Position numbers and translations under genes: made by a program. Shown here one piece after another: positions 19,319 to 20,932 of a stretch of DNA of 28,912 bases; positions within the stretch are counted from its first letter, which is position 1, and every line of letters starts with the position of its first letter. Origin of the DNA: a virus; the UHGV virus genome UHGV-1359478; one strand, written 5' to 3'. The notes beneath the pieces were generated by a model that had not been told where the DNA came from, ran no database searches, and saw only the letters and a program-made list of their open reading frames with translations.

Positions 19319-20932
19319 TTAAGCCTGGTTGTTAAAACTGGTGACCTGACGCTTGCCAGACTGGAACGGCGCCCAGGTGACGGCGGGATCGCCTTCAAAG
19401 GTGCTGATCTGGCGACCGGTTGCATCGGCGCGCTTAATCTCGCGCAGCATACCGGGACCAACTGACAGGCTGGCCGCCTTCTGCGCATCAGCGTAGATAT
19501 GCTTTTCGGCAGTGCTCAGCAGTTGAGAATCAGCGATGGCAGAGAGATCGACGGCTTTGTAGTCCGGAGAATGCTCCTGCAGTTGAATCATCAGACGGCG
19601 GCGATACGCCATCGGTTTTTCACCGGACAGCGGGATCGGGGCGCGTTTGCCAAAGCTGGAGAAGACGCTATCGGCTTTCACCTGCGCTTCTGCAACTTCG
19701 TTGCGCTCTTCGTCGCTCAGTTCGGTAGGAATGCGGGAGCGAAGCTCAGCAATTTCCTGGAGGATTTGAGAGTCGGCTTTTTCTTTTGCCATTTTCTCAG
19801 CCTCTTCGGCATCCGCCTTTTCTTTGGCTTCAGCATCAGCTTTTTCCTTCGCGGCTTTCTCTTCCGCGTCGGCTTTAGCTTTCGCCTCTTCCGCTTCTTT
19901 GTCTTCTGCGTCAGCCTTTTCTTTCTTGGCGGCCTCTTCGGCGTCAGCCTTGGCTTTCGCTTCCTTCTCTTCGTCGGCCTTAGCCAAACGCGCATCGATC
20001 GCCTTATTAATCAGCGCTACGATTTTTTCCTCGTCCATCTTTTCAGCCTCTTCAGGAATGGAATCAGATTTAACACCGGTAGGGGCAAGGAGCTTGTCCC
20101 ACACGCCCTGTTCACAAATTGCAACGTGGTCGAGCAGCTCGGGGGATGGCTCCACCAGTAGAGGCTGACCGTCGACAATGATTGATTGAGCAACCTCTGA
20201 GAACTTCACAGTTGGCGAGGTGCTTAATTGCCTTGTTGCCATAATTTCAGCAGCTTCGGCGTCGTACACACGCGCAACGGCCCACACTTCGCCCTTATCG
20301 GCAACCCAGGCATTTGTCAGGGTGCCAATAACGCGCTTTGAGAACTCGTCGCTATCAAGTGTTCTTTTTTCGGGGTGAAGCCAGATAAGTGGTACGCCAG
20401 CTACCCGCTGGAGAAATTCAGGGGTGAGATAGTCGTCCGGGTTACGGAACGTCATCTCCTGATCTGCAGATCGCCAGGTAACCCCTGTTCCGGTCACCCG
20501 GATGGCGAACATCCACATGTTGTAAAAATATTGCGGGCTGCTGAGCGTTCCGTCAGCGATGAGCGCGGCCACGTCGGTTTCGTTGAGCGCCTGCTGCGCC
20601 AGCATTTCAGCGAATGGCTGATGAAGCGGCTTTGGCAGATCGTCAATATGGAACCATCCGGCGGCCAGCGATTCGTCGTTTATCTTCGCTTCGAATTGCT
20701 CCGGCACGTCGGCGCGGTAGGTCAGGTAGTCACCATGTACGCTGTGCGGCGTCAGCGGGCCATCGTACTGATAGCCTGTTTCCTCCAGCACCTCGCGCCG
20801 TGCGGCGTCTATGGCTAACTCTCCCGGCTCTATCGTCCCGCCCGGCTGGCACCATGTGCCATCATCCGAGCGCTGGATCAGGAAGACGAACTTCCCCTGA
20901 CGGAACATTATCCCGCTGCCAAAAATAGCCAC
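19319..20932 (-). CDS. Fusion protein: N-terminal Nudix hydrolase domain, prohead protease/scaffold-like middle, Ala/Glu/Lys-rich coiled-coil scaffold region
   Basis: Single 537-codon frame. GTG start at 20932 with AGGAG Shine-Dalgarno 9 nt upstream. Residues ~34-56 [23 protein letters not shown] match the Nudix box GX5EX7REUXEEXGU exactly. Residues ~310-375 are KADAEE-type heptad repeats. Sits in the protease/scaffold position between the portal/head-morphogenesis and capsid genes. Confidence 0.7.
19780..19990 (-). repeat. Imperfect tandem nucleotide repeats encoding the [12 protein letters not shown] coiled-coil segment of the scaffold
   Basis: Reiterated gcttc/ggc/ctttt-type units visible in the sequence; the translation is periodic Ala/Glu/Lys. 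Confidence 0.5.

Follow-up and report, generated by a model that had tools for sequence, protein, structure and literature searches.

The presence of a Nudix hydrolase signature at the start of a gene in a phage head module raises two questions: whether the enzyme domain is genuinely part of a prohead protease-scaffold protein, and whether it is built into the capsid and delivered to the next host. The window analysed here is a stretch of 28,912 nucleotides from the virus genome UHGV-1359478. It contains a single uninterrupted open reading frame (ORF) of 537 amino acids at 19319–20932, which starts with GTG and lies on the minus strand, as do all of the window genes and coding features located below. 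The original prediction had described this one continuous frame without giving its strand. The frame encodes a Nudix domain, a DUF2213 protease-like domain, a coiled coil and a C-terminal scaffold domain.

The gene and its genomic context

The DNA of the gene was 99.5% identical to that of gp4 of Klebsiella phage vB_Kpn_Chronis, annotated as a 'putative NUDIX hydrolase', and 98.9% identical to that of gp7 of RothC/RothD. The window comes from a Q-regulated, temperate myovirus of Klebsiella that belongs to the vB_Kpn_Chronis/RothC/RothD group, which others assign to Felixviridae. The KlebPhaCol preprint uses the Nudix-fusion gene as a PCR marker for this proposed family and labels its product only as a 'putative virion structural protein'. 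PHROG 6216 spans the 537 amino acid protein from end to end (E = 7e-246).

The genes on this strand were arranged in the order TerS, TerL, portal, MuF/SPP1 gp7-like protein, Nudix-fusion protein, a protein of 286 amino acids, major capsid protein, and neck and tail proteins. The portal gene (21763–23178; Phage_portal_3/DUF1073) here carries no Nudix domain. The upstream neighbour of the fusion gene is the MuF/SPP1 gp7-like head morphogenesis gene (20945–21766; phrog_324, E = 4e-29), and the major capsid gene (17398–18429) was identified through a weak PF09950 match together with phrog_264/phrog_6671. The predicted location between the portal/MuF-like genes and the major capsid gene was borne out, except that the gene for the 286 amino acid protein intervenes before the major capsid gene. 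The expected AGGAG Shine-Dalgarno sequence was found 9 nt 5' of the GTG (20942–20946), where it shares bases with the TAG stop codon of the MuF-like gene (20945–20947), an overlap that points to coupled translation of these head genes. A similar GGAG-containing context precedes the same GTG in the Yersinia phage homologue.

Upstream of the head genes, on the same strand, is a lambdoid late-control and lysis block (24525–28860) containing a NinG/Rap-like endonuclease, a NinI-like Ser/Thr phosphatase, a Q-like antiterminator, a holin, an endolysin, an Rz-like spanin and TerS. This block identifies the window as part of a Q-regulated temperate myovirus or prophage. The Nudix-fusion gene belongs to the Q-dependent late operon, so that the enzyme could act early in infection only by being packaged.

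Two further observations concern the structural region. The 286 amino acid protein (18443–19303) and the tail sheath protein (13666–15060) have a module of approximately 75 residues in common (42% identity, E = 1e-9) and both match phrog_9998, which indicates that one small domain has been inserted both in the sheath and in a protein associated with the head; the PdC23 homologue of the 286 amino acid protein carries the label 'endosialidase'. A tail-module protein of 627 amino acids (10708–12591), equivalent to Chronis gp14 ('putative lytic transglycosylase'), combines a tape-measure-like region with a C-terminal lytic transglycosylase/endolysin-like domain.

Domain architecture of the fusion protein

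The structure of the protein was predicted with AlphaFold using an alignment of 120 sequences, which gave a mean pLDDT of 88; a model obtained from the single sequence (pLDDT 43) was set aside in favour of this one. The model contains a Nudix module at residues 1–114, a mostly β region at approximately 134–275, two long helices at 301–398 and a helical region with a hairpin at 407–525.

The Nudix domain occupies residues 1–114 (20591–20932), its end being set by the Nudix-less homologue in Escherichia phage Rac-SA53, which begins at the position aligned with residue 115. The claim of a complete N-terminal Nudix domain was supported by the Pfam NUDIX profile (PF00293), which matched residues 9–112 with E = 2.9e-16 and 60.1 bits against a cutoff of 21.1. 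The domain has the α/β/α Nudix fold in its minimal form, with no accessory domains attached. The Nudix box, the catalytic and metal-binding motif, is formed by residues 32–54 (20771–20839), which fit GX5EX7REUXEEXGU exactly, as originally reported. Gly32, Glu38, Arg46, Glu47, Glu50, Glu51 and Gly53 were each kept in 63–69 of 70 diverged fused homologues. Conservation of the catalytic and metal-binding residues at this level (90–99%) is the pattern of an active hydrolase, and with its catalytic motif intact the domain probably is one.

The substrate is less readily assigned. None of the NCBIfam equivalogs (ADPRase, RppH, MutT, NudI and others) matched at cutoff, the best score being 28 bits against 103. 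The structural neighbours of the domain include MutT-like, ADP-ribose, NTP and ApnA enzymes. The alignment of the window domain with T4 NudE, a phage enzyme of the Nudix type active on ADP-ribose, FAD and Ap3A, was limited to 34 residues of the Nudix box, with no subfamily-wide similarity.

The middle domain comprises residues 115–298 (20039–20590), is built mostly of β strands and was classified as DUF2213/COG3566, prohead-protease-like, by Pfam, PHROG and BFVD. The Pfam DUF2213 profile (PF09979) matched residues 159–276 with E = 1.8e-5 and 25.2 bits against a gathering score of 22, and 25 of the 26 aligned relatives matched it as well. The middle and C-terminal parts matched the 'head maturation protease' families phrog_530 and phrog_2229, in agreement with the earlier description of the remainder of the protein as protease/scaffold-like, and the BFVD matches of the middle domain are by name phage prohead proteases. 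His186 (20375–20377), Ser237 in an STSP motif (20222–20224) and His269 in a DH.A motif (20126–20128) were invariant in the 120 sequences, as was Asp224, and all four stayed invariant when the canonical DUF2213 proteins BcepB1A gp26 and Bcep781 gp14 were added to the alignment. The catalytic residues of assemblin follow the order His-Ser-His. The same order is seen in His186, Ser237 and His269, which form a candidate triad, read from sequence alone, with His186 as the candidate catalytic histidine, Ser237 as the candidate nucleophile and His269 as the candidate third residue. We infer that the DUF2213 domain is a prohead maturation protease; the invariant His/Ser/His set fits the labels given by the PHROGs, the BFVD neighbours, the BcepB1A annotation and Iyer et al. 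Alignment of the domain profile with HK97 gp4 in hhalign gave a probability of 0.1, which is not significant, and a Pfam scan of 26 domain sequences returned no match to Peptidase_S78, S77 or S21 even at E ≤ 10. The protease function is consequently kept as putative, since no profile links the domain to HK97 S78, T4 S77 or assemblin (S21).

The remainder of the protein is a putative scaffold. The K/A/D/E-rich coiled coil described in the original prediction corresponds to two long helices at residues 301–398 (19739–20032), with low confidence at 341–356, and is encoded by imperfect tandem DNA repeats of 75 nt and 33 nt (19820–19973). Near-identical prophage copies differ in the length of this region, giving proteins of 537, 538, 540 and 541 amino acids, which is read from these sequences as repeat-driven scaffold polymorphism. 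The C-terminal helical and β-hairpin domain, residues 407–537 (19322–19714, pLDDT 86–98), is the presumed capsid-binding end; it is kept in Nudix-less relatives too and gave phmmer matches in nearly all full-length representatives. The long helices, the conserved C-terminal domain and the proximity of the gene to the capsid gene are what a scaffold would be expected to show; binding to the capsid interior is known only for a distant homologue, Pa193 gp24.

A second product may be made from the same frame. An internal ATG encodes Met299, at the boundary of the protease-like domain and the coiled coil, and is preceded at a distance of 8 nt by a GAGG Shine-Dalgarno-like motif (20047–20050). Initiation here would give a predicted nested in-frame scaffold ORF of 239 amino acids, Met299 to Ala537 (19319–20038). 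Met299 was kept in at least 90% of the 120 sequences and was invariant in an alignment of eight sequences. A Shine-Dalgarno-like motif lies 6–9 nt before the aligned methionine in five lineages (the window, Yersinia, Pantoea, Shewanella and Rac-SA53) and persists though the local protein sequence differs among them. In lambda C/Nu3 and P2 gpO one frame likewise gives both a protease-scaffold fusion and an internally initiated scaffold-only product. The logic suggested by Met299 and its Shine-Dalgarno motif is the same, although the lambda and P2 proteins belong to other protease families and have no extra N-terminal enzyme, and their nested products are matched in the window by a predicted one. 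Conservation of Met299 and its ribosome-binding motif, together with the annotation of BcepB1A gp25 as an in-frame scaffold gene nested in gp26, indicates that a scaffold-only product is probably made from Met299 in the style of lambda C/Nu3. The resulting arrangement would be an abundant scaffold-only protein accompanied by fewer full-length Nudix-protease-scaffold molecules.

Related head proteins and the possible fate of the Nudix domain

The original prediction was sound on the anatomy and the head-gene position of the protein, but its statement that no phage system with this architecture had been described was contradicted by two sources. Iyer, Burroughs, Anantharaman and Aravind (Viruses 2022; PMC9503650) describe phage Nudix domains fused to MuF, portal or capsid-processing serine peptidase, predict that head-fused Nudix domains are packaged and injected, and note their enrichment in myoviruses. 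The window protein belongs to this class; the present Klebsiella lineage is not named in the main text of the paper. As set out there, the fused Nudix domains fall in a T4 NudE-like clade and ADP-ribose-derived signals are the favoured substrate guess, whereas the window domain resembles T4 NudE only in the Nudix box. The second source is the GenBank/RefSeq annotation of Burkholderia phage BcepB1A, so that both the architecture and the hypothesis of a packaged and injected enzyme were already in the literature.

BcepB1A gp26 (head maturation protease, COG3566) has the same order of NUDIX, DUF2213 and C-terminal scaffold, and occupies the same position, preceded by genes for portal and MuF-like proteins and followed by those of the capsid. 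Its Nudix domain is 48% identical to that of the window and is preceded by approximately 45 extra residues, whereas the DUF2213 and scaffold parts of the two proteins are too diverged for BLAST; the Pfam DUF2213 match is strong in BcepB1A (E = 1.6e-35) and weak in the window protein (E = 1.8e-5). Related Nudix domains with 36–41% identity are found in the portal-Nudix proteins (gp17/gp18) of Bcep781, Bcep1 and BcepNY3, on a Phage_portal_3 protein of the family of the window portal. These phages likewise use a DUF2213 protease, but the Nudix domain is at the portal C-terminus, as it is also in Bcep43, and the protease (gp14 in the Bcep781 group) has none. A portal-MuF fusion in Arthrobacter phages is another carrier of a related Nudix domain. 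The closest phage Nudix domains, at 36–48% identity, thus sit on carriers internal to the capsid. In a metagenomic relative, P0193 (L012:6001–8019), a PBECR1 RNase domain (Barnase/EndoU/ColE5-like) replaces the Nudix domain ahead of DUF2213, and the surrounding synteny is that of the window (TerS-TerL-portal-MuF-like-X-capsid).

Two further systems bear on location and delivery. A profile search of the PDB identified gp24 of Pseudomonas phage Pa193 (PDB 9B40) as the only relative of the DUF2213 domain (E = 6e-4). This protease-like and scaffold protein of 478 amino acids, whose gene adjoins the capsid genes, has been placed inside mature capsids by LC-MS and cryo-EM, with a helix-turn-helix bound inside the five-fold vertices; it differs in having no Nudix domain, its homology is distant and only residues 286–326 are resolved. 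The internal proteins and Alt of T4 offer an analogy, in that an enzyme is loaded via the prohead core or scaffold, processed by gp21 and ejected with the DNA. They differ in using a short cleavable targeting peptide with no fusion to the protease, and T4 NudE is a free protein.

These comparisons suggest a mechanism in which the coiled coil and C-terminal domain would act as a scaffold binding the inner capsid surface, the middle DUF2213 domain as the prohead maturation protease and residues 1–114 as a minimal Nudix pyrophosphohydrolase. Through its covalent link to the scaffold, the Nudix domain would be carried into every procapsid in a limited number of copies. During maturation the protease would digest the scaffold, setting the compact Nudix domain free within the capsid. 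Most probably the retained domain would then be ejected with the DNA and would hydrolyse NDP-X compounds right at the outset of the next infection, the candidate substrates being ADP-ribose-derived immune signals, NAD-related compounds, dinucleoside polyphosphates and 5' caps. The range of carriers, the exchange of domains in the N-terminal slot, the location of Pa193 gp24 and the late timing of expression make incorporation into procapsids very likely and delivery plausible. We consider it probable that the window gene encodes a genuine Nudix-protease-scaffold head protein built into procapsids. For the full chain, in which the enzyme is also released and delivered to counter host defences early, we put the chances as even.

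Release and retention are the steps on which this chain depends most. The model has no low-confidence linker between the Nudix and protease domains (pLDDT 97–98 across residues 100–140), so that an exposed cleavage site between them is not evident. In HK97- and lambda-type capsids the protease and scaffold fragments usually exit, and retention of the Nudix domain is thus not guaranteed. It is possible, if rather doubtful, that an active Nudix enzyme works only late in the producing cell, or transiently in the procapsid, and is degraded or expelled at maturation without being delivered. It could then remove an ADPr- or NAD-derived signal for abortive infection elicited by head proteins, or sanitise the nucleotide pool, and the fusion would merely provide co-expression and stoichiometry with the late genes. 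The position of the gene in a late operon, the loss of protease and scaffold fragments and the dispensability of the domain in relatives are all consistent with such a role, and Iyer et al. (PMC9503650) suggest a comparable alternative for head-linked ARTs, which may counter immunity aimed at packaging proteins. However, covalent fusion is unnecessary for simple co-expression, and the same Nudix clade is found on three capsid-internal carriers (portal C-terminus, MuF and protease). The toxic-type RNase domain in the same slot of a relative is also a better fit to delivery than to late housekeeping. No virion proteomics or biochemistry on the Nudix-fusion protein or its close relatives was found in the literature searched, and the Yersinia phage papers had nothing on the gene.

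Distribution and modularity of the fusion

A protein search identified 2,215 homologues; nearly all of the 120 matches listed combine PF09979 and PF00293, and most of these lie on Klebsiella chromosomes. The same fusion was found in homologues from Yersinia, Pantoea and Shewanella phages, down to 41% identity. An exhaustive search with the protease-like domain only (residues 118–300) gave 784 representatives of clusters at 50% identity. Among the best 150 of these, a Nudix domain directly precedes the protease-like domain in approximately 85, and approximately 57 lack any N-terminal extension. The Rac-SA53 protein is an example of the latter, and no separate Nudix gene was found upstream of it.

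When a neighbour-joining tree with 120 tips was built from the protease domain, presence of the Nudix domain was highly interspersed, requiring at least 35 parsimony changes. Within the limits set by weak resolution of the tree and possible gene-calling errors, this interspersion suggests that the Nudix domain is a modular, dispensable accessory, and by comparison with natural Nudix-less relatives such as Rac-SA53 it is not needed for assembly. The survival of such relatives also bears on whether the Nudix fold might be a non-catalytic structural or regulatory module, for example one that holds the protease inactive until assembly or acts as a nucleotide-binding assembly cue. This is improbable, given that the Nudix-less proteases evidently function and that all of the metal-binding and catalytic residues are conserved in the diverged fusions. 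The reading of the fusion as an assembly, frameshift or gene-calling artefact joining separate Nudix and scaffold ORFs, for which no support was found, is refuted by the same continuous frame in three independently sequenced and cultured Klebsiella phages (approximately 99% DNA identity), in the phages of the three other genera, among the database homologues and in the diverged clusters, and the resequencing of the junction advised in the original prediction is unneeded.

The annotation of these relatives is uneven. GenBank records give 'glycosyl transferase' for the Yersinia vB_YenM homologues and 'TolA protein' for those of Rac-SA53 and an Actinobacillus phage (L002:6001–7632, L003:4468–5760). 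Both labels were rejected as misannotations, the TolA match falling on the low-complexity K/A/E coiled coil. A note in the Rac-SA53 record says 'nudix' although the protein is without that domain. Some longer relatives have 220–1000 extra residues before Nudix-DUF2213, consisting of DUF5710 in P0126, unknown sequence in P0144 and ribonucleotide-reductase-like domains in P0253, which is possibly a product of chimeric gene calling. The possibility that the extra 220–420 N-terminal residues of P0144 and P0126 are a fused copy of the MuF-like gene was rejected.

A broader reading can be offered tentatively, in which the N-terminus of DUF2213 protease-scaffold proteins would be a general, exchangeable cargo slot whose contents are freed by the protease and injected against NAD- or ADP-ribose-derived immune signals. 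The slot would hold a Nudix domain in most lineages, other lineages would have a PBECR1 RNase or domains of unknown kind there, and approximately 40% would have it empty. It might be used by temperate and virulent myoviruses alike, with injection ahead of gene expression, and could constitute a natural programmable route of protein delivery, unlike the T4 targeting peptide or MuF fusions. Such a slot could serve to load foreign proteins into capsids.

The present analysis adds figures for how widely the fusion occurs, a candidate triad that is conserved, the signal for a nested scaffold and the exchange of the slot with PBECR1. As the idea itself is already published, the value of the locus is as a good experimental model with added anatomy, in the form of a predicted nested scaffold, a candidate triad and a modular slot. 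The model is tractable because RothC/D and Chronis are cultured and natural Nudix-less (Rac-SA53) and domain-swapped (PBECR1) relatives are available for comparison. The finding will not surprise specialists in phage conflict, yet it provides a widespread model for a published, predicted role. Should the Nudix domain turn out to be packaged and ejected, very common prophages of Klebsiella and enterobacteria would enter the cell pre-armed with an enzyme. That enzyme could destroy immune signals based on nucleotides, or molecules derived from NAD, ahead of all phage gene expression, which would bear on host range in phage therapy and on the evasion of Thoeris or NADase-type defences.
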